Of a stretch of 64,000 bases of DNA, positions 1,891 to 64,000 are shown piece by piece. Origin of the DNA: Eledone cirrhosa (Eukaryota); contig OZ024766.1 in the NCBI GenBank assembly GCA_964016885.1, positions 21,824,001 to 21,888,000 on the forward strand, given 5' to 3'. Every line of letters begins with the position of its first letter. Position 1 is the first letter of the stretch. The notes below the pieces were generated by a model that was not told the origin of the DNA, searched no databases, and was given only the letters and a program-made list of their open reading frames with translations. The position numbers and the translations under genes were made by a program.

Positions 1891-4800
1891 CACTACTACA
1901 CTACCACCTCCACCACCACCACTTAAACCCCACCCCCCACTACACCACCACCACCTCCACCATTACCCTTCTATCTATTTCCAGCCGTGCGTTCGACACA
2001 TTTAAACACCGCCAGCTGATGCTGCTGGGTCGGACAGAGCCCACTCGGCTGCCTATTTTCTCGTTCATCGTGAGGGTACCCCTTAAGGGCAAGTTCCTTC
2101 ACCACAACTTCGTCTCCGTCTTACTCAACGATCTCTTTGGAATCCAGGCACGTGGAGGCTGCGCATGTGCAGGTCCGTATGCACAGGTAAAATACTCATC
2201 TCTTTTATTTATGCATGTATCAGCATCATCATCATCATCGTTTAAAGTCCATCTTCCACGCTAGCATGGGTTAGACGGGAGTTGTCCCACTTGAGGCAAG
2301 GTTTGGTTGGGTGACCGTGTCTCGCTTGTATAGGACTGCATCTGGCTGGGTGCCCTTCCTAACACCAACCACGTTTACAGTGTCGACTGGGAGCCTTTTT
2401 ACTGTGTCTCCTACACGACCACTTTACAGTGGACTGGGAGCCTTTTTACTGTGTCTCCTACATGACCACCTTACAGTGTGGACTGGGAGCCTTTTTACTG
2501 TGTCTCCTACATGACCACTTTACAGTGTGGACTGGGAGCCTTTTTACTGTGTCTCCTACATGACCACCTTACAGTGTGGACTGGGAGCCTTTTTACTCTG
2601 TCTCCTACATGACCACTTTACAGTGTGGACTGGGAGCCTTTTCACTGTGTCTCCTACATGACCACTTTACAGTGTGGACTGGGAGCCTTTTTACTGTGTC
2701 TCCTACACAACCACTTTACACTGTGGACTGGGAGCCTTTTTACTGTGTCTCCTACATGACCACCTTACAGTGTGGACTGGGAGCCTTTTTACTGTGTCTC
2801 CTACATGACCACTTTACAGTGTGGACTGGGAGCCTTTTTACTGTGTCTCCTACATGACCACCTTACAGTGTGGACTGGGAGCCTTTTTACTCTGTCTCCT
2901 ACATGACCACTTTACAGTGTGGACTGGGAGCCTTTTTACTGTGTCTCCTACATGACCACTTTACAGTGTGGACTGGGAGCCTTTTTACTCTGTCTCCTAC
3001 ATGACCACTTTACAGTGTGGACTGGGAGCCTTTTCACTGTGTCTCCTACATGACCACTTTACAGTGTGGACTGGGAGCCTTTTTACTGTGTCTCCTACAT
3101 GACCACCTTACAGTGTGGACTGGGAGCCTTTTTACTCTGTCTCCTACATGACCACTTTACAGTGTGGACTGGGAGCCTTTTTACTGTGTCTCCTACATGA
3201 CCACTTTACAGTGTGGACTGGGAGCCTTTTTACTGTGTCTCCTACATGACCACTTTACAGTGTGGACTGGGAGCCTTTTTACTGTGTCTCCTACATGACC
3301 ACTTTACAGTGTGGACTGGGAGCCTTTTTACTGTGTCTCCTACATGACCACTTTACAGTGTGGACTGGGAGCCTTTTTACTGTGTCTCCTACACGACCAC
3401 TTTACAGTGTGGACTGGGAGCCTTTTTACTGTGTCTCCTACATGACCACCTAGTGCGCCTATGACAATCGGGACCACTTTGACTTCATGGCAGTTCCAAA
3501 TCCTTTTTACCTCCCACTTTAAGTCCTGGTATCGGTTAATTTTCTCCCTCTCCCTCTCTTGCACTCTCGTGTTAAAGGGTCAGGCTACATCTACAATCAG
3601 GCATGATCTTTCTTCCTTGTCCAAAACCCACCAGGTCAGGCCTATTGTGTTCTAATTTCTTGTCCGTCTGTATCCTAAAATCCCACAGCACCTTCACCTG
3701 ATCCTTTTCTATCACTGACTCTGGCTTATGCTCATTTTTATTATTATTATTCCTCTGTCTGGTGGCAGTTGCGAAAGAGATTATATGGTGGACCAGGTTG
3801 AAAGGACTAAAGACAGACACTTTTCTCTTCGGCCAATCCCTCATCAACTTCTTCAAGTTTCACCTGGAAAGGAAGGTGAGGGTGGAGAGAGAAGTGCTGC
3901 CCCCCAGTACATTTGCTAAAAGGTGGGTGAATGTGGCGAGAATGGCTCGTGTGAATGGGCCTACTCTGACCATGCGCCTATAGGCTGGCTAACTTGAGGA
4001 GAGGGGTGCTCTCCTGGGTGCCCTAGAAGCGCAGGGTGGTTCAGGATTGGTGGGGTACCCGAATCACCCCAGAGTCGTCCACACCCTATCGGGGAATCTA
4101 TTTTGTTATATTTTGCATAGTTTATTTTATATTTTATATCTTCATTGTTAAATTAGTCTCGCCATTGTGCCCTTTTACTCGACCTTATTGTAAACCCCCC
4201 ACTGTCCCCGTCTTTGTATTGTCCCCTACATGTCGGCCCTTGTGGCTAATAAATGAAATCATTATTATTATTATTAGGGCGGTGGATTGGCAGTATCAGT
4301 AGAGGGTCAGACGCCATGCTTTCCAGCATAGTTACGTCCCTTTATGATCTGAGTTCAAATCCCGCCGAGGTTGACTTTGCCTTTCATCCTTACGGGGTCG
4401 ATAAAATAAAAGTACCAGTAATGCACTGGTTTATTGCTGGCCTTGTGCCTAAAGTAGAAACAATTATTATTATTATTATTATTATTATCACCCCTACAGA
4501 TGTTACTGGGCATCTCAGAGAGTCTAGCAAACGTCTTCACCAGATTTATAAACAATAAAGAGAAGTAAGTATTTTTATCTGGATTTTGGAGATTTAAAAA
4601 AAAAATATATATTTTTACCTTATTTGGTATTTTTTGAAGTATTATTTTAGGGTGGTTGATAGGCAGTATCGGTAGAGGGTTGGACGCCATGCTTTCCAGC
4701 ATAGAGTTACGTCCCTTTATGATCTGAGTTCAAATCCCGCCGAGGTTATCAACTTTGCCTTTCATCCTTACGGGGGTCGATAATATAAAGTACCAGTAAT

Positions 4801-17611: not shown

Positions 17612-45644
<28,033 letters not shown>

Positions 45645-49179: not shown

Positions 49180-50373
49180 TTATGGGTTCTCACCCGTATG
49201 CGTATATTTGTGTCTAGTTAAACTACTTGATACAGAGAATGATTTACCACAGATATCGCAGTGGTATGACTTGTCTCCTGTATGGGTATGTAAGTGTTTA
49301 GTTAAGTTACTACTTACAGAGAATGATTTACCACAGATATCGCAGTGGTATGGCTTGTCTCCTGTATGGGTACGTTTGTGGCTAGTTAAGTTACCACTTA
49401 TAACGAATGATTTACCACAGATATCACAGTGATATGGCTTGTCTCCTGTATGTATACGTTTGTGAGTGGTTAAGTGACTACTTATAAAGAATGATTTACC
49501 ACAGATATCACAGTGGTATGGCTTATCTCCTGTATGGGTACGTTTGTGTATAGTTAAGGTACTATTATCAGAGAATGATTTACCACAGATATCACAGTGG
49601 TATGGCTTGTCTCCTGTATGGGTACGTTTGTGTGTAGTTAAGTGACTACTTCGAGAGAATGATTTACCACAGATATCACAGTGGTATGGCTTGTCGCCTG
49701 TATGTATACGTTTGTGGGTAGTTAAGGTACTACTAACAGAGAATGATTTGCCACAGATATCACAGTGGTATGGCTTGTCTCCTGTATGTATACGTTTGTG
49801 TCTAGTTAAGGTACTACTAACAGAGAATGATTTGCCACAGATATCACAGCGGTATGGCTTGTCTCCTGTATGGGTACGTTTGTGGCTAGTTAAGTTACCA
49901 CTTATAAAGAATGTTTTACCACAGATATCACAGTGGTATGGCTTGTCTCCTGTATGGGTAGATTTGTGTGTAGTTAAATTACTTGATGCAGAGGATAATT
50001 TACCACAGATATCACAGTGGTATGGCTTGTCTGCTGTATGTATACGTTTGTGTCTAGTTAAGTGAATACTTTGAGAGAATGATTTACCACAGATAACGCA
50101 GTGGTATGGCTTGTCTCCTGTATGGGTACGTTTGTGTGGAATTAACTGACCACTTTGAGAGAATGATTTACCACAGATATCGCAGTGGTATGGCTTGTCT
50201 CCTGTATGTATATGTTTGTGGCTAGTTAAGGTACTACTAACAGAGAATGATTTACCACAGACATCACAGTGATATGGTTTCTCTCCTCTAGAATTTGACA
50301 TCTCTTCTGGAATAGCCATATCTCTAGACAATGTTTCACATTTAATCTTCTTCTCACTCAATTTAGTTTCCAT
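49180..50373 (-). CDS. C2H2 zinc-finger protein, 13 tandem fingers, no KRAB domain (ZNF-A)
   Basis: 397-aa ORF: 35-aa leader plus 13 C-x2-C-x12-H-x3-H units with TGDKPY linkers; candidate 5'-UTR intron acceptor at 50760-50761. Confidence 0.92.
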   Translation of the reverse strand: METKLSEKKIKCETLSRDMAIPEEMSNSRGEKPYHCDVCGKSFSVSSTLTSHKHIHTGDKPYHCDICGKSFSQSGQLIPHKRTHTGDKPYHCVICGKSFSQSIHLTRHKRIHTADKPYHCDICGKLSSASSNLTTHKSTHTGDKPYHCDICGKTFFISGNLTSHKRTHTGDKPYRCDICGKSFSVSSTLTRHKRIHTGDKPYHCDICGKSFSVSSTLTTHKRIHTGDKPYHCDICGKSFSRSSHLTTHKRTHTGDKPYHCDICGKSFSDNSTLTIHKRTHTGDKPYHCDICGKSFFISSHLTTHKRIHTGDKPYHCDICGKSFVISGNLTSHKRTHTGDKPYHCDICGKSFSVSSNLTKHLHTHTGDKSYHCDICGKSFSVSSSLTRHKYTHTGENP

Positions 50374-52325: not shown

Positions 52326-53120
52326 TTTATATATATATATATATACTTTATATATATACTTTATATATATATATATATACTTTATATATATAAAGTATAT
52401 AAATATTTAAGCAGAAAATAGGGGAAAAATTAGTCAGAAATATTTTAAATATAAAACGGAATAAATTAATGAAAGAAACGTAAAACAGATAAAAGTTGTT
52501 GAAATACCTTGAAAATATAAAATATAGAAGAAAGAGGCAGGAATTGATTGAGTTTGAAGTAAATTAATGAATGAACGAAAGTAGGTGGGGCAGGAACAGG
52601 AAGTAAAGACAGTACAGTCTCGCAGTGAATGGTAAGGTTTAGAGTAAGAATTATTTTATTCCTGGTTGTATAAATAACATTACAAATTATACTTAGACGA
52701 ATAATGTGCTGTATTAAATATATATATATATATAAATATATATATCACAGGGCCGAACAGCAAGTACAGTCTCGCAGTAAATGGTAAGGATTAGGGGAAG
52801 AATTATTTTATTCCTGGTTGTATAAATAACTTTACAAATATCACAAATATCAAATAGATAAAAAAAAATATATACCTATATATATATATTATATATATAT
52901 ATATATATATGGCATACGTCAAGACGGGCGGTCAGAAAAGTGAAAGTCTTGACGTATTCCCAACTCCTTTGTAGTGCTATATATATATATATATATATTT
53001 TAAATTTTGTTTATCTATTTATTTGTGATATTTGTAAAGTTATTTATACAACCAGGAATAAAATAATTCTTCTCCTGATCTTTACCATTCACTGCGAGAC
53101 TGTACTTGCTGTTCGGCCCT

Positions 53121-53155
<35 letters not shown>

Positions 53156-53411
53156 GATATTAAATAAATGGAAACTATATTTATAAAACCATATTTATTT
53201 CATATTATCCCAACAATTTTAAATAGAACTTTTGCATATATATATATATATATATATATAAGATCAAAAAAAAAATATATATATATATATATTTACTACA
53301 CCACATTATTCGTCTAAGTATAATTTGTAATGTTATTTATACAACCAGGAATAAAATATTTCTTCCCCTAATCCTTACCATTCACTGCGAGACTGTACTT
53401 GCTGTTCGGAC

Positions 53412-53449
<38 letters not shown>

Positions 53450-53804
53450 TACTATAGCACATTATTCGTCTCAGTATAATTTGTAATGTTATTTATACAA
53501 CCAGGAATAAAATAATTCTTACTCTAAACCTTACCATTCACTGCGAGACTGTACTGTCTTTACTTCCTGTTCCTGCCCCACCTACTTTCGTTCATTCATT
53601 AATTTACTTCAAACTCAATCAATTCCTGCCTCTTTCTTCTATATTTTATATTTTCAAGGTATTTCAACAACTTTTATCTGTTTTACGTTTCTTTCATTAA
53701 TTTATTCTGTTTTATATTTAAAATATTTCTGACTAATTTTTCCCCTATTTTCTGTCTAAATATTTATATACTTTATATATATAAAGTATATATATATATA
53801 TAAA

Positions 53805-53849
<45 letters not shown>

Positions 53850-55815
53850 ATATATATAAAGTATATATATATATATAAAGTATATATATATATATATAAA
53901 GTATATATATATATATATATAAAGTATATATATAAATATATGTGTATATATATATATATATATGCATATATATATGTGTATATATACATACATACATTAT
54001 ACATACTAGACAAGATAATACACCTACACATCTGATATAAGAGTACGGACAGGCTATGTAGCCGGTAAAACCAAAAGGGGTGCAACACACATATTGCTAT
54101 AGTGTTTCACCAGCTCTTCCTCAATCATTCATAGATGTGAGTGTATATAATAATTATTTTGTATAATGTGTCTATTTATAAATATGTATGAGTAGATGTG
54201 TGTATAACTCAGTAGATGTGTGTATAACTCAGTAGATGTGTGTGTAACTCAGTAGATGTGTGTATAACTCTGTAGATGTGTGTATAACTCTGTAGATGTG
54301 TGTGTAACTCCGTAGATGTGTGTGTAACTCAGTAGATGTGTGTGTGTAACTCATGTGTGTAACTCAGTAGATGTGTGTGTAACTCAGATGTGTGGGTAAC
54401 TCAGATGTGTGTGTAACTCAGTAGATGTATGTATAACTCAGTAGATGTATGTATAACTCTGTAGATGTGTGTGTAACTCTGTAGATGTGTGTGTAACTCT
54501 GTAGATGTGTGTGTAACTCAGTAGATGTGTGTGTCACTCAGTAGATGTGTGTGTCACTCAAATAATTGTCCCCCACCCTTACTTTGGTCTGAAATAATTG
54601 TCCCCCACCCTCACATTTTGTCTCAAATAATTGTCCCCCACCCTCACTTTGGTCTCAAATAATTTTCCCCCACCCTCACTCATTTAATTATCAGACTTTT
54701 TACACCACCACCCCACTCTTAATTCACTCCACCCATTTAAAATAAATAGCATGGGTTGGGGTCTCATTATGTAAACTAAATGACTAATTCTGGTTTTCTA
54801 TCTCTGGTGAAATTTATATGTATATATATATATAAATATCTATACATATGTATACGTATATAAATATCTAGACATATGTATATATATATATATATGTATA
54901 TATATATGTATGTATATGAGCTCTTAAGACCATTAAAATAACCTCTCTAGTGCCAAAAACTATACACCCAGTCCTTGCTGTAAAGTGGTTGATGAGTGGA
55001 AAGGCAACCAAACAAAAGAAATAAAATAGCGCTAAAATTATGGAAAGCCCTACGAATAAAAATTCCCACTAATTGTGTCTACAAGCCTAACACAAGTCAT
55101 GTTATTGGGGTGCCTAGGGTAGCCATGTGTGAGAATCCTTTGACTGTTACCAAGCAATTACACAACACTTTTCCCCTTCCAGGTAGAAAGAACTGTTACT
55201 CAAGGAACTGTCAAGTTACACATCTCAGGTCTCAGACAATTACCATGTTAGAATGTCATATAAGAATGAAGTTCTTGAGTAAAGGCTATAGAGCAGACCT
55301 CCCAAGAGTTAGAAGAATATAGTTTATAGAGCATCGTGGAATATCACTGCTTACATTGGAGAGAATAACTCTGGACAGGAAAGTTGATATCTACAGTTTA
55401 TCAACATAGAAATATAAAATTTCCAATGTTAAATCTATCTCTGTTTCTAAAGTATTCTCTATTATCTCATACTGTTTTTTTCTTATTTCAGAATATCAGA
55501 TGACATTGGGATAAAATTATTTTTTAATCTTGAATACATCCCCTCTATTTATCATCATTTCAAGACTAAAGCTTTTTCATACGGAACTCATATAACACTG
55601 TTTATATAAATCTATGGCAGAATTTGTGTGAAATATTTCCTCAGAACTGTGTGTTTTGGAAAAATTCTTGGAAAACTATTGTTTAATCAGCATCATCTTC
55701 AGATCTTGACTGAGATCAGTTGCTGGAAATATAGCAGAAGAAATATCTTCAGGAATATAATATATAAAATTAGACAAGAATAACATCTGTAAATTCTGCC
55801 AAGGGAAGAAGAAAC

Positions 55816-57513
55816 ATGGAAACTAAATTGAGTGAGAAGAAGATTAAATGTGAAACATTGTCTAAAGATATGGCTATTCCAGAAGAGATGTCAAATTCTA
55901 GAGGAGAGAAACCATATCACTGTGATGTCTGTGGTAAATCATTCTCTGTTAGTAGTACCTTAACTACCCACAAACATATACATACAGGAGACAAGCCATA
56001 CCACTGCGATATCTGTGGTAAATCATTCTCTCAAAGTGGTCACTTAACTCCACACAAACATACCCATACAGGAGACAGGCCATACCACTGCGATATCTGT
56101 GGTAAATCATTCTCTGTTAGTAATAGCTTAACTAGACACAAACGTATACATACAGGTGAGAAGCCATACCACTGTGATATCTGTGGTAAATCATTCTCTG
56201 ATAGTAGTACCTTAACTGGCCACAAACTTACACATACAGGTGAGAAACCATACCGCTGCGATATTTGTGCGGACTCATTCTCTGATAGTAGAACATTAGC
56301 TAATCACAGACGTTTACATACAGGAGACAAGCCATACCACTGTGATATCTGTGGTAAATCATTCTTTACAAGTAGTAACTTAACTATACACAAACGTATA
56401 CATACAGGAGACAAACCATATCACTGCGATATCTGTGATAAATCATTCTATCAAAGTAGTCACTTAACTTCCCACAAACGTACACATACAGGACACAAGC
56501 CATACCACTGCAACATCTGTGGTAAATCATTCTATGTTTGTAGTACCTTAACTAGACACAAACGTTCCCATACAGGTGAGAAACCATACCGCTGCGATAT
56601 CTGTGGGGACTCATTCTCTGAAAGTAGTACATTAGCTAATCACAAACGTTTACATACAGGAGACAAGCCATACCACTGTGATATCTGTGGTAAATCATTC
56701 TCTCATAGTGGTCAGTTAACTCCACACAAACGTATACATACAGGAGACAAACCATATCACTGTGATATCTGTGGTAAATCTTTCTCTCAAAGTGGTGCCT
56801 TAACCAGCCACAAACGTACCCATACATATGAGAAACCATACCACTGTGATATTTGTGGGCAATCATTCTCTGAAAGTAGTCACTTGACTAGTCACAAACG
56901 TATACATACAGGAGACAAGCCATACCACTGTGATATCTGTGGGGAAGCATTCTCTCGTAGTGGTAATTTAACTTCCCACAAACGTATACATACTGGTGAC
57001 AAGCCATACCACTGTGATATCTGTGGTAAATCATTCTCTGGTAGTAGTGCCGTAACTAGACACAAAGTTATACATACTGGAGACCAGCCATATCACTGTG
57101 ACGTCTGTGGTAAATCATTCTCTCGAAGTAGTACCTTAACTAGTCACAAACGTACACATACAGGAGACACGTCATACCACTGTGATATCTGTGGTAAATC
57201 CTTCTCTGGAAGTGGTACCTTAACTAAACACTTACGTACCCATACAGGAGACAAGCCATACCGCTGTGATATCTGTGGTAAATCATTCTTTACAAGTAGT
57301 GACTTAAATAGCCACATACGTATACATACAGGTGAGAAGCCATATCTCTGTGATATCTGTGGTAAATCATTCTCTCAAAGTGGTACCTTAATTAAACACT
57401 TACGTACCCATACAGGAGCCAAGCCATACCACTGTGATATCTGTGGTAAATTATTCTCTGAATCAAGTAATTTAACTAAACACAAATATACCCATACAGG
57501 TGAGAAGCCATAG
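55816..57513 (+). CDS. C2H2 zinc-finger protein, 19 tandem fingers, no KRAB domain (ZNF-B)
   Basis: 565-aa ORF with almost the same leader ([16 protein letters not shown]) plus 19 fingers; candidate upstream acceptor ttatttcag ending at 55491. Confidence 0.93.
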
Positions 57514-58977
57514 CTCTGAGATATTCTCTGTATCAAGTAGTTTAACTAAACACATATAGGTGAGAAACCATATCAATGTCATATCTCATTGTCTGAAAAT
57601 GGTGAATTAAACACATACATTCATATGAGAAGGCATGCCACTGTTCTATTCTCTTTCATTGCTACATACAAACATTTATATACAGGAGAGAAACCATATC
57701 ACTGTGATATCTGTGGGAAATCATTCTCTGAGATAACTCACTTCATTTGGCACTAACGTTTACAGGAGAGGAACTATACCACTGTGATGTCTGCAGTAAA
57801 TCATTCTCTAAATGTTGTGGCTTCACTACACACTAACATATACAGTAAAGGAACTATATCACTGTGATGTCTGGTAAATCATTCTTTAAATATTGTGGCT
57901 TCACTAGACACTAACATATACAGGAGAGGAACTGTGATGTCTGTGGTAAATCATTCTCTTGTAAAGATTACTTAACGCAACACAATCTGAGAAGATTAAA
58001 ACCATATCATTCACCGAAAATAGTGCCACTAATGTTGTTAATATTTTGAATAAAACTGTTTTACTAAGAAATTCTTCTCCTTTCATTTTATTTGTAGAAG
58101 TTGTAACCAAGACTTGTGCTGACAAATCTGTAGCGTTCAGAATTTACATACGCTATATATATGTGAATGTATGTGTGTAGGTATTTGTGTCCCCTTTTGT
58201 TTGTTGCATATGTAGTGGATAAATGTATTCTTTTGTGTATGAATGATAAAAAGAATAATGCCAGAATTGTGATGTTGACAATGTTTATTTTACAATAACA
58301 ATATTAACTTCTTGCTACATTGAATATCAAGTAATAAAAATGGGACAGGAATTATCACTACATCAATTTGTTGACTAGCTACTTCGAGCTAGCGTGCATG
58401 TATGTATCAATACAACGACACAAGAGAAGTGATTCAACAGAAAGACAAAAGAATAGATAAAACACAGAAGTAAACAGTATAATGAAACCTATTGAGTGTG
58501 TGTGTATCCTTACTATTTGTTATTCCTCACAAGGACTGCTGCTTTGGTCTCTCTTGTTTGGTGGCGTAGTCTGTGGCCAAGAAGGTGAGAGCCAGTAAGG
58601 CCAGGAGAGAGATAGAGTAAAAGGTCAGTAGAAGTCTGTAGACCCCAAGAGGTCTGTAGAACGTGAATGTTTCACATCATTATTCTCTCAAGCACTGCTG
58701 CTTCGTGGTCTGGCTTCTGGATTCCCTTTGTACTTGTATTTATAATAACCGTATAGCTAGAAGGATGTGTATAAGGGGTTGATTTATGAATAGCCATGTG
58801 AGTTTCATCTATCATGAAGCTGGGGTCACAGGTCAAGTGGCATGTATGTTCATCATTGTTGTCTCGTGACAGGACAATGGTGGGAAACTCGCAACGATAG
58901 GTGGTCCCAGATGCGAGAACTCTTAGATTCGGTTTTGAATCTTCGCCAGGTAATTTATAGGAGAATTCCGTTTACAC

Positions 58978-59155
58978 ACATATTAATGACATAGATGGCA
59001 ACTTAAAGTATGTCACAGTACTGAAATATGCAGATGACATCAAGCTGTCCCTTGAGATAAAAAGGACAGATCCTGAACTCTATAGATCTGGACACAATGG
59101 ACCATGGACTGGCAACTCAAACTGGCTGTGTACAAGTGTACGACCATGCATTTAT
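58978..59155 (+). mobile_element. CR1/L2-type RT remnant
   Basis: INDIDGNLKYVTVLKYADDIKLSLEIK containing the YADD motif. Confidence 0.6.
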
Positions 59156-59159
59156 CTAT

Positions 59160-59795
59160 CTATTTAAAGCTGTATATAGCTATGGTGTGGCCAGACTTAG
59201 AATTTGCATGACCTGTCTGGAACCCCTATCTTGCTCAGAACATTGACCTCCTGGAAATTGTTTAGAGACATGCAACCAAGTGAATACCCTCCATCAAGCA
59301 TCTACCATACTCTGAATGCCTTGCCTCCCTGGGTATGGATACATTGAAGGTCCGACGTCTGGAACTTGCTACTTATTACACCTGAGCATCGGCCACTTAT
59401 AAAATCTACTTTCTTAGATAGCTGGCCTGTGTTCCCAGTACGTCTGTTATGTACCCATAGTTTGTATTTGGGACATAAAATGGAATTTCTACCTACTCCT
59501 TTCCTACACACTGAAGATGGCCATTTCCCAGAGGGCACCTGTGCCCTATTTTCCTTCCTACAAACTAGAACTTTAGTCTTAGACAAGTTAACTTTACGGC
59601 CTTTTGATTCTAGGCCATGCTTCCATGTTTGGAATTTCTGATCTAGTTCAGCTGTTAGATCATCTGCGTATAGAAGTTCCCATGGGCAGCCTGTCTTAAA
59701 CTCCTCTCTTTTAGCCTGAAGGGCAATAATAAATAGGAAGGGGCTAAGAACACCAACTTTTAAACTAAATTCTTCACTGTGTTCATTGGTAATTC
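59160..59795 (-). mobile_element. Decayed RTE LINE fragment (mirror at 62307-62562)
   Basis: PWELLYADD..KVNLSKTKVL..CRKGVGRNSILC. Confidence 0.75.
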
Positions 59796-59991
59796 TATAT
59801 ATATATATATATACAAATTTATGTGTATATATATATATATATACACATATTTATGTGTATATATATATATTTACTACACCACATTCTTCGTCTAAGTATA
59901 ATTTGTAATGTTATTTACAAAACTAAGAATAAAATAATTCTTGAGATATTCACTGCGAACCTGTACTTTCTCTATATCTTTTTCGGACCTG

Positions 59992-60039
<48 letters not shown>

Positions 60040-60042
<3 letters not shown>

Positions 60043-61226
60043 AAGGGCCTCAAAGTCAACATGACAAAGACTAAGGTCCTTATAAGTAGACGAGAAAACA
60101 GAACCCAGATCCCCTCAGGGAAATGGCCTTGCTCAGTATGTAGGAAAGGTGTAGGTAGGAACTCCATTCTTTGCCCCAAATGCAAACAATGGGTACACAA
60201 GAGATGTAGCGGGATCTCAGGAAGCTTAATTAAGAATGTAGGATTCACATGCAGCAGCTGTGCTGAAACAGCAAGCAAACAGCCACAGGAAACAAGTACC
60301 ACCAATCTCTGGGAGGGCCCTGTAGAAACAGTAGACAGCTTCTGCTACCTAGGTGACCGAATTAGCAACGGAGGTGGGTGCTCAGAAAGTACAATAACTA
60401 GGGTAAGAACGGGATGGAAGAAGTTTAGGGAACTACTACCACTGCTAGCTGCAAAAGGCTTCTCCCTCAGAATGAAAGGCAGACTGTATGATGCGTGTAT
60501 CCGAACAGCGATGTTGCATGGTAGTGAGACCTGGGCGCTGAAGGTGGAAGACTTACGTAGATTAGAGAGAAACGAAGCCTGCATGCTCCGATGGATGTGT
60601 AACAGTAATATACGTGAACGACAAAGCATAAATGAATTGAGAGAGAGACTGAGCATAAGAGGAATCAAATGCTGCGTGCAGGAGAGGCGGTTACGCTGGT
60701 ATGGACATGTGATGCGTATGAAGGATGACAGCTGCATAAAAAGGTGCAGAGCACTAGAAGTTGATGGAAACCGCGGAGTGGGGAGACCCAAGATGACTTG
60801 GGATGAGGTGATAAAAGCCGACCTTACCCAACTACACCTCTCAAAGTCAATGACACACGACCGTGACTTCTGGCGTCACGCAGTAATACAGGGTACCCGA
60901 CCTCCCATGGGTACATGCTGAAGCATATAAACAATATGCCCCCCCCCCCCCCCACCGCAAGGTGGTCGTGGAGGTGCCACGGCAAAAAAGCACCCAGCCC
61001 ACACTGTAAAGTGGACGTGTAGGCGCCACGAAAAAGCACCCAGCACTCACTGTAAATGAGGTTGGTGTTAGGAAGGGCATCCAGCTGTAGAAATCAAGCC
61101 AGATCAGTTCCTGTATGAGCAAGGCATGGTCAGCCGACCAGACACTGCCCACAACAGGACAACCCGTCTAACCCATGCTAGCGTGGAAGAACGGACGTAA
61201 AACGGTGATGATGATGATGATGATGA
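60040..61226 (+). mobile_element. 5'-truncated RTE-clade LINE with an open 3' ORF and SINE-type tail
   Basis: Open frame to 60921: GLKVNMTKTK..CSVC..C..C..WVHKRC..FCYLGD..LHGSETW..RRLRWYGHVMRM..GRPKMTW; tail ends (GAT)n; sits inside a (TA)n tract. Confidence 0.9.
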
Positions 61227-61239
61227 TATAATATATATA

Positions 61240-61900
61240 GGCATACGTCAAGACGGGCGGTCAGAAAAGTGAAAGTAAATTTATTTTCATTTTCGTGTGT
61301 GTGTTTAGATCTAAATTAGTGTCGTTTTAACTGATTATATATATATATGTATATGTGTGTGTGTGTGTAGTTGACGGTTGTGAGAAGAGTACTCAATACC
61401 GAAGTAATCTTGTAATGAGGCTTGCAGAATGGTGAGTCCGCCATTCTGGATGCTGCTGCCTTGCAGAAGTCCCAAATCGAAGCTCTGACACTCTCGTCCC
61501 CATCATTCAGCAGGGATTTTGCCAGGCAGCCGCATCATCTCCGATGGTTGGGCTTCCTATTTGGAAATTGAAGGTGGGATTTACGTTCATGATGTTGTGG
61601 TGCACGAACGGAACTTTGTAGATCCTGCAGACCTTGATGTGCACACACAGCTCCTAGAGAGCACATGGAGCCGTGCAAAGAAGAAGCTTCGTCGCCAGCA
61701 TGTGCAAGCCTCATTATAAGAATACTTCGGTATTGAGTACTCTTCTGTCAACCGTCATGCCACGGAATTTGGCTCTCAGAAATGAAAGAAGAATTTAACG
61801 TCATTCGTCAACCTTCGTTTATTTCCGTATCACCACGCGTTTATTTCCGTATCACCACGCGTTTATTTCCGTATCACCACGCGTTTATTTACGTTAGCGT
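61240..61900 (+). mobile_element. Merlin (IS1595/ISXO2-like DDE) DNA transposon remnant
   Basis: 61466-61700 translates EVPNRSSDTLVPIIQQ/(frameshift)ILPGSRIISDGWASY..HDVVVHERNFVDP..VHTQLLESTWSRAKKKLR; probable terminus GGCATACGTCAAGAC at 61240; 22-bp repeats x3 at 61817-61890. Confidence 0.75.
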
Positions 61901-63479
61901 AGTAATCGATGAAAATATATTTATTTCGCACTGTATATCAAATTAGAAAACAAGTCAGCGTAATCGATTTGTTCCCCACCACCACCATGTGTAAATAAAT
62001 AAACTTGGAAATCACCACGTTGTACACGTATTTGCAACTTGAAAAATATGAATTCTACATTATACTCCAGCGTAAATGGAATTAATTATGGCAATATTTC
62101 CATGGCTTCTACTACTACAGCAGATACCATTAATTGGTTGAAAAAACATGGACTTAATCCTGTCCATTGGCAGTATCGGCAGAGGGTCGGACACAATGGT
62201 TTGACGCATAGAGTTACGTCCCTTTATGATCTGAGTTCAAATCCCGCCGAGGTTAACATTGTCTTTCATCCTTACTAGGTCGATAAAATAAAGTACCAGT
62301 AATGTACTAACAGCTGAACTAGATAAGAAATTCCAAACATGGAAGCATGGCCTAGAATCAAAAGGCCGTAAAGTTAACTTGTCTAATACTAAAGTTCTAG
62401 TTTGTAGGAAGGAAAATAGGGCACGGGTGCCCTCTGGGAAATGGCCATGTTCAGTGTGTAGGAAAGGAGTAGGTAGAAATTCCATTTTATGTCCCAAATA
62501 CAAACTATGGGTACATAACAGACGTACTGGGAACACAGGCAAGCTATCTAAGAACGTAGATTGTACACAACCAGCTTGAGTTGCCAGTTCGTGGTCCATT
62601 GCTGCTTTGTGTCCAGATCTATAGAGTTCAGGATCTGTCCTTTTTATCTCAAGGAACAGCTTGATGTCATCTGCATATTTAAGTTGCCATCTATGTCAAT
62701 AATATGTGTGTAAACGGAATTCTCCTATAAATTACTTGGCAAAGATTTGAAACCGAATCTAAGAGTTCTGGCATCTGGGACCACCTATCGTTGCGAGTTT
62801 CCCACCATTGTCCTGTCAAGAGACAACAATGGTAAACATACATGCCACTTGACCTGTAACCCCAGCTTCAAGATAGCTGAACCTCACATGGCTACTCATA
62901 AATCAATCCCGTATACACATCCTTCTAGTTATAGGGTTAATATAAATACAAGTACAAAGGGAATCCAGCAGCCAAACCACGAAGCAGCAGTCCTTCAGAG
63001 AATAATGATGTGAAACATTCACGTTCTACAGACCTCTTGGGGTCTACAGACTTCTACTGACGTCTACGGACCTTTTACTCTATCTCTCTCACCGTCTCAG
63101 CCACAGTCTACGCCACCAGAAAAGAGAGACCGAAGCAGCAGTCGTTGAGAGGAATAACAAATACTAAGGATACACACACACTCAGTAGCTTTCATTATAC
63201 TGTTTACTTCTGTGTTTTATCTATTCTTTTGTCTTTCTGTTGAATCACTTCTCGTGTATCGTTGTATTGATACATACATACACGCTAGCTCGAAGTAGCT
63301 AGTCAGCAAATTGATGTAGTGATAATTCCTGTCACAAATTTTTATTACTTGATATTCAATGTAGCAACAAGTTAATATTGTTATTGTAAAATAAACATTG
63401 TCAACATCACAATTCTGGCATTATTCTTTTTATCATTCATACACAAAAGAATACATTTATCCACTACATATGCAACAAA

Positions 63480-64000
63480 CAAAAGGGGTCCAAATTTCTA
63501 CACACATACATTCACATATATATAGCGTATGTAAATTCTGAACGCTACAGATTTGTCAGCACAAGTCTTGGTTACAACTTCTACAAATAAAATGAAAGGA
63601 GAAGAATTTCTTAGTAAAACAGTTTTATTCAAAATATTAACAACATTGGTGGCACTATTTTGGGTGAGTGATATGGTTTTTATCTTGTCTGATTGTGTTG
63701 CATTAAGTAACCTTTACAAGAGAATGATTAACCACAGATATCACAGTGATATAGTTCCTCTCCTGTATATGTTAGTGTGTAGTGAAGCCACAATATTTAG
63801 AGAATGATTTACTGCAGACATCACAGTGATATGGTTCCTCTCCTGTAAATGTTAGTGCCAAATGAAGTGAGTTATTTCAGAAAATGATTTCCCACAGATA
63901 TCACAGTGATATGGTTTCTCTCCTGTATGTATATGTTTGTGTCTAGTTGAACAAGCTTTCATGGATAACAATTTATCACAAATATTACAGTGATGTGGCT
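63480..64000 (-). other. 3' flank and decayed fingers of a third ZNF paralog (ZNF-C) whose CDS would lie right of the window
   Basis: Direct copy of ~48515-49050 (ZNF-A downstream region with degenerate [13 protein letters not shown] units) and inverted copy of ~57670-58190. Confidence 0.75.

Follow-up and report, generated by a model that had tools for sequence, protein, structure and literature searches.

Two deleted copies of a Merlin DNA transposon lie at the two breakpoints of an apparent 8.3-kb inversion in a direct tandem array of C2H2 ZNF genes of Eledone cirrhosa, and the inversion was probably made through them. We consider the copies the likely cause because a deleted copy and apparently exchanged target duplications are present at each breakpoint. 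The window is the whole stretch of 64,000 nucleotides that was analysed (C27:21,824,001-21,888,000), and the genome searched amounts to 3.0 Gb. Judging from sequence comparison, the "palindrome" and the "second inversion" of the original prediction are the two breakpoints of one event in a direct array. That prediction tied Merlin ends to rearrangement, which holds in so far as they occur at both breakpoints with exchanged duplications; the rearrangement itself appears to be one inversion and not a set of inverted duplications. The features of the region, by position in the window and strand, are the following.

49180-50373, minus: coding frame of ZNF gene 1, 397 aa with 13 in-frame C2H2 motifs (ORF scan, finger map); not inverted
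52611-52862, plus: upstream units of gene 1, A (52611-52715) and B (52746-52862)
52902-52910, plus: putative target duplication 1, first copy, 9 nt of (TA)n, low in information
52911-52947, plus: Merlin family-1 terminal inverted repeat (TIR) positions 1-37, subfamily A variant, 37/37 identical to the ends of copy L002
52946-52960, minus: opposite TIR, last 15 nt, one mismatch; join 1 with 2-nt microhomology
52960/52961: left breakpoint
52961-52969, minus: putative target duplication 2, first copy
52961-52977, minus: family-2 TIR positions 2-18, inverted, 15/17 match
52961-61239, no strand: apparent inverted segment of 8,279 bp with gene 2, its flanks, unit U and the RTE
53010-53555, minus: upstream units of gene 2, B-like 53010-53126, extra ~53276-53399, A-like 53449-53555
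55816-57513, plus: coding frame of ZNF gene 2, open, 565 aa with 19 C2H2 motifs; the flipped gene
59871-59995, minus: unit U, which would have followed unit B of gene 1 before the inversion
60042-61230, plus: 5'-truncated RTE LINE inside (TA)n, likely a later insertion
61231-61239, minus: putative target duplication 1, second copy, inverted
61239/61240: right breakpoint
61240-61757, plus: Merlin family-1 non-autonomous copy, positions 1-536 of the 686-bp copy L002; transposase fragment 61439-61716
61757-61761, plus: probable opposite TIR, short, last 4-5 nt; join 2 with 1-nt microhomology
61762-61770, plus: putative target duplication 2, second copy
61762-62163, plus: family-2 element from TIR position 10 onward
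62307-64000, minus: ZNF gene 3, 3' flank and end, not inverted; the gene runs to ~66,500, beyond the window

The tandem array and its flipped gene

When the window is extended by 40 kb to the left and 80 kb to the right, the region contains five C2H2 arrays on strands - + - - -. Units A and B, which lie upstream of gene 1, recur in the best-scored 40 paralogous upstream regions. At the un-inverted junction between genes 3 and 4, unit A is followed by unit B, then by (TA)n, by unit U and finally by the 3' flank of the next gene. If 52961-60040 is flipped back, with the RTE and the element left out, all of the BLAST pieces obtained against the neighbouring units (92/92) are plus-strand, one of them spanning 6,276 aligned columns, and the flip rebuilds a B-(TA)n-U junction that is present in the neighbour and in 17 paralogous loci. 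Since both the colinear direct array and this junction are thereby restored, a single inversion, not two, best accounts for the layout. Unit U had been described as a decayed copy of the upstream unit; instead, 122 of its 125 positions (97.6%) agree with the third of the upstream units in the neighbouring gene, which is not inverted. Gene 1 now has no third upstream unit and stands head-to-head with gene 2.

The intron of gene 2 differs from that of gene 3 at 1 of 550 positions (0.2%), from that of gene 4 at 4 of 550 (0.7%) and from that of gene 1 at 16 of 549 (2.9%). Its 5' exon lies 2.5-3.0% from genes 1, 3 and 4 alike and does not discriminate among them, and the proximal 199-bp segment is near-identical in all genes and hence uninformative. 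The fold-back repair suggested earlier would have made gene 2 a copy of gene 1, yet its intron is nearer to gene 3, which contradicts duplication by that route. The inversion reoriented a gene and added none. A ZNF "palindrome" can thus consist of a single flipped unit of a direct array, with no duplication involved, and this speaks against the view that inverted duplication powered the present expansion.

Merlin ends at the two breakpoints

The first 37 nt of the central hairpin are, as had been noticed, identical (100%) to 61240-61276, and a genome-wide check agrees with the proposal that they form the TIR of a Merlin family, here called family 1. Their first 25 nt have 52 exact matches in the genome against 0 for the control, many of them arranged as facing pairs 459-690 bp apart. 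A 16-mer searched with one mismatch allowed gives 931 matches against 61 for its control, from which we estimate roughly one copy per 7 Mb (931 minus 61 termini over 3.0 Gb). Thirty-seven family-1 loci were examined for target duplications and 31 of them are two-ended. Among these 31, 17 have exact 9-bp duplications (9/9), the commonest length, four have exact 8-bp duplications (8/8) and two have near-exact ones; the flanks of the other eight are discordant, two of these matching at 7/9. TA flanks occur in 16 of the 31. Five copies with both ends and non-matching flanks (L015, L017, L029, L108 and L001) may represent adjacent deletions or more distant rearrangements; around the first four, a search over 20 kb to either side yielded no partner with a crossed duplication.

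PMC8101967 defines Merlin by 5'-GG TIRs of 24-462 bp, duplications of 8 or 9 bp and a DDE_Tnp_IS1595 domain. Family 1 is alike in all of these: its ends begin with 5'-GG, the TIR of its subfamily A is 205 bp long, its duplications measure 8-9 bp and the domain lies inside the element. Because the TIRs, duplications and transposase domain agree with the definition, the 37-mer can be assigned on sequence grounds to a Merlin family. Unlike the superfamily as defined there, subfamily A is a fold-back-like derivative of ~686 bp, with 205-bp TIRs flanking a 275-bp transposase fragment that is found in either orientation; in the copy at L021:1501-2190, the fragment between the 205-bp TIRs runs opposite to that of L002. 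Another copy, 2,004 bp long and with the family-1 TIR (L154:1005-3008, which is C2:151474005-151476008), has a 9-bp (TA)n duplication and a stop-free frame of 330 aa matching PF12762 DDE_Tnp_IS1595 at E 8.8e-23. PF12762 is the sole Pfam family in this frame at E<=0.001, with no Zn_Tnp_IS1595 N-terminal domain, and candidate acidic residues for a catalytic D-D-E triad are visible. This copy appears to be of the autonomous type and is a candidate transposase source. Two family copies are found 1.07 kb apart at C2:196228722-196232495 (L105, L155), one of subfamily A whose flanks are discordant and one of 2 kb with an 8-bp duplication and a shortened frame; a local hop may have produced the pair.

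The hairpin at 52911-52960 has the predicted 14/15 stem and 20-nt loop and is centred on the axis of the palindrome. Its predicted DNA fold has an energy of -10.2 kcal/mol (z -4.2), and equal stability was reached in 0 of 200 shuffles. The innermost arm match (52852-52862 and 53010-53020) is exact over 11 nt and is separated from the hairpin by spacers of 48 and 49 nt that are mostly (TA)n. Because the corresponding (TA)n tract ranges from 30 to 73 nt among the 17 paralogous units where it was measurable (29 loci scanned), the exact centring is a coincidence of microsatellite length. The presence of the hairpin as the sole non-microsatellite sequence at the centre is not a coincidence. The 50-bp form consists of TIR positions 1-37 joined to the last 13 nt of the opposite end over a 2-nt microhomology; the TIR sequence retained is symmetric (37+13 nt) and the middle of the element is absent. 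We also considered whether the hairpin belongs to a common free MITE family of 50 bp and rejected this, as the genome search returned a single match in 3.0 Gb, at its own locus, and there is no direct duplication. A comparable mini derivative of family 1, reduced to 34 bp but with its 9-bp duplication intact, lies at L023:1501-1534.

At the right breakpoint, a Merlin transposase remnant had been placed about 200 bp downstream of the 37-mer. The remnant is real (61519-61716, Pfam PF12762 DDE_Tnp_IS1595, E 4.3e-8), but it is not separate from the 37-mer, the two being parts of one element copy at 61240-61757; the transposase fragment of the window is 78% identical to L154 over 64 aa. The copy at 61240 diverges by 2.5-3.1% from five subfamily-A copies, which differ among themselves by 1.3-2.1%. 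The gene units diverge by 0-5% depending on the segment, and the family-2 copy by 4.5-7.6% from its relatives. The RTE lies within (TA)n at 60042-61230, as described, and has 0 substitutions in 1,187 aligned sites relative to a copy 9 kb downstream (L034:5254-6440), which is the 3' part of a longer RTE in the upstream region of gene 3. Such identity indicates very recent local copying or conversion. Since these divergence levels fit it, we infer the order of events as array, then family-2 insertion, then family-1 insertions and inversion, then RTE.

Both Merlin copies are without a direct duplication as found, and taken crosswise their flanks pair at 9/9 and 6/9. The first pair joins 52902-52910 with the reverse complement of 61231-61239 (9/9); being (TA)n, it has a chance probability of about 50% and serves as a parity check only. 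The second pair falls within family 2, an older dispersed family whose TIRs start with GG and resemble those of family 1. Duplications of 8 bp were read by eye at three family-2 loci (L077, L080 and L095), and with its GG TIRs and these duplications the family would be an older, Merlin-related TIR element. Positions 10-18 of its TIR are present at both breakpoints in inverted orientation, each time abutting a family-1 terminus, and the overlap is exactly 9 bp. The family-2 match at 52961-52977 is the only such site with at most two mismatches in 1,968,000 positions scanned. The two copies of duplication 2 agree with each other at 6/9 and with family-2 sequence at 7/9 and 8/9, a poorer agreement than in any of the 23 pairs of the family-1 census that are exact or near-exact, or in its two pairs at 7/9. 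With moderate confidence, we conclude that the target duplications have been exchanged between the breakpoint copies. Empty site 1 is represented by the paralogues and empty site 2 by family-2 copies; the available runs yielded no orthologous allele.

Two other assignments were dropped on the way to family 2. The 17 nt that follow the hairpin were considered as unique flank; pattern searches with them gave only chance-level results, and their identity came through the family that lies behind 61762. Position 61761 was considered as the start of a Chapaev-like end, and the family-2 alignment puts the TIR start 9 nt earlier.

Routes to the inversion

Exchanged target duplications are diagnostic of element-made inversions in Drosophila, as described for Galileo and BuT5 in PMC2775673 and PMC3698922. 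The same papers supply the closest parallels. The Galileo inversions 2j, 2q7 and 2z3 of Drosophila buzzatii likewise have a cut-and-paste element with long TIRs at both junctions, exchanged target duplications and other elements accumulated at the breakpoints (PMC2775673). Unlike Galileo, which belongs to the P superfamily and made inversions of cytological size, the element here is a Merlin (IS1595-related) and the segment is 8 kb; also unlike those cases, our copies are too deleted for their orientation or chimerism to be read, and the pre-inversion state is reconstructed from paralogues. The inversions 2s and 2x3 of the Drosophila repleta group, attributed to the MITE BuT5, similarly have non-autonomous copies at both breakpoints, exchanged duplications of 8-9 bp and an autonomous partner elsewhere in the genome (PMC3698922). 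BuT5 belongs to another superfamily; in our case one of the two targets is located within the TIR of an older related element, and a tandem gene array surrounds the inverted segment. The class of mechanism is already known from Drosophila; what the window adds is a DNA transposon tied to one rearrangement at base resolution, and a cheap genome-wide test, namely a search for Merlin end pairs with crossed duplications.

In the course of events that we propose, the tandem array would have been present first, and a Merlin family-1 element would have entered the (TA)n that separates unit B from unit U upstream of gene 1. Another family-1 copy would have come to lie 8 kb away, inside the TIR of the older element, where it duplicated 9 bp, and an exchange between the two copies would then have flipped the intervening segment. 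The central copy would later have been cut to the 50-bp hairpin by a microhomology deletion and the other copy would have lost 145 nt, with the RTE arriving last. Unit U and its flank are absent at the junction of genes 2 and 3, and a further deletion would be needed there. Palindromes are unstable, and the shrinkage of the central copy may have followed from its position on the axis of long inverted arms.

Within the reading that Merlin made the inversion, ectopic recombination across the long TIRs is slightly favoured and takes somewhat less than half of the weight, hybrid-element insertion a little over a third and cut-and-rejoin at the inner ends about a fifth. The slight preference for recombination arises because duplication 2 and the adjoining end look too old for a clean one-step insertion, and because family copies can lie close together (1.07 kb apart in one pair). 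According to PMC2775673, recombination and hybrid insertion lead to one and the same product, and only chimerism tells them apart; the same source indicates that hybrid element insertion of the P element and reversed-ends transposition of Ac/Ds would lead to an identical end product if both ends came from one sister-chromatid site. In hybrid-element insertion, transposase would pair the ends of sister copies after replication and insert them 8 kb away, so that the inversion and the second copy arise in one step. This gives the identical exchanged pattern (PMC2775673), requires only one prior insertion in a family as sparse as family 1, and could draw on the autonomous-type copy with a matching TIR. 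It predicts, however, copies that are identical and a new target that is cleanly duplicated, whereas there is one mismatch in the 15-nt end and there are three in duplication 2, and the close pair at C2:196.23 Mb illustrates that neighbouring copies arise otherwise; taken by itself it is unlikely, though a serious contender. Under cut-and-rejoin, two copies that had already been deleted would have been cut at or near their inner ends and the segment rejoined upside down by error-prone end joining. A flip of exactly 52961-61239 would then leave a mini copy of 50 bp flanked by a direct (TA)n duplication, resembling L023 with its 34 bp and intact 9-bp duplication, and the three substitutions clustered within 12 nt of the left junction, together with the 1-2 nt microhomologies at both internal joins, agree with such repair. 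Yet the family-2 copy is diverged near its other junction too, so the cluster need not have been born of repair, and the inner ends are joined by only 15 nt of homology; we regard this route as improbable.

The remaining explanations leave Merlin without a part in the inversion or give it a larger one. It is quite improbable that Merlin was a bystander, with staggered breaks or recombination in (TA)n as the source of the inversion and a later colonisation of the (TA)-rich breakpoints by the elements. About half of the two-ended family copies are TA-flanked, and PMC2775673 and PMC3698922 document secondary colonisation of breakpoints; later colonisers, however, have direct duplications of their own (PMC2775673), which these two copies do not, and the family-2 TIR is split exactly at both Merlin termini with the 9-bp overlap. 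A flip produced by misassembly at inverted repeats is very improbable, even though the region is palindromic and rich in microsatellites and neither junction is covered by the reads or contigs of five runs. The best of seven runs contains 24% of the words, and as the repeat filter skipped 52854-53010, the outcome of the read check weighs neither for nor against. What speaks against an artefact is that the sole bounding inverted homology is 15 nt with a mismatch, that the flanking gene copies are several percent apart, and that an old TIR divided with an overlap of 9 bp is not what a misjoin would be expected to produce. Least credible of all is the original model, in which fold-back repair or aberrant transposition at a Merlin end yields inverted ZNF duplications and drives the C2H2 expansion. 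The hairpin is indeed central between head-to-head arms, and Merlin ends occur at both strand switches of this cluster; against the model stand the plain direct array obtained by flip-back, the closeness of the gene 2 intron to genes 3 and 4, and the strand pattern and family-1 loci described in the next section.

A stronger version of the preferred, Merlin-made reading is that Merlin transposase makes inversions through end pairing of sister copies, often enough to reorient genes of C2H2 clusters. This is rather doubtful. If true, it would demonstrate at the level of breakpoints that the Merlin/IS1595 lineage of eukaryotes carries out alternative transposition, and that a DNA transposon has rearranged a ZNF cluster of the coleoid type, with direct arrays turned into head-to-head palindromes. 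A search of open-access literature listings found no report of a Merlin-bounded inversion or of alternative transposition by Merlin. PMC13282606 names Merlin among recently active families, and PMC9795677 reports tandem C2H2 clusters without breakpoints.

C2H2 clusters and Merlin copies elsewhere

The generality of the association was examined in 984 kb of C27 chosen around the upstream-region paralogues together with the window, a sample that is not genome-wide. It contains 55 C2H2 arrays forming 50 neighbour pairs, of which 45 are on a common strand and five are strand switches. Family-1 ends and transposase matches in the 984 kb occur at the two switches of the window only. The other three switches, one of them read in detail and two scanned, have no family-1 or family-2 TIR (<=2 mismatches) and no transposase match. 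Upstream-region paralogues numbered 153 candidates, 40 of which were scored, and nearly all lie on C27 in long same-strand runs. Conversely, among 44 three-kb family-1 loci elsewhere, some of which overlap the same copy, a C2H2 motif was found in one and upstream units in none. For five of the six clearly discordant family-1 copies, no crossed-duplication partner was found in 40 kb each (within 20 kb). Merlin had been proposed as a mechanism of C2H2 expansion; the expansion here appears to have proceeded by direct tandem duplication, and the sample lends a driving role of Merlin no support.

Two same-strand runs of C27, at 19.43-19.66 Mb and 19.94-20.06 Mb, comprise 27 and 18 C2H2 arrays with a period of ~7-8 kb, and their upstream regions are 95-99% identical. 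By this measure both runs appear to be very recent direct tandem expansions. A weak match to the inner parts of the autonomous copy, without TIR, lies in a same-strand array at C27:19,589,668-19,590,289.

At C27:19924225-19935232 (L136, L137) there is a head-to-head ZNF switch with no Merlin. Its two genes are truncated by RTE pieces at near-equal intron positions (91 and 85), and the interval between them contains tandem repeats of an RTE segment and an inverted repeat of 819 bp with 94% identity. Long arrays of a 49-bp satellite, whose unit derives from a 3' segment of an RTE, occur on both strands in the window and its neighbours (L042-L045); the arrays at 2429-3449 and 43158-43790 are 97-98% complementary.
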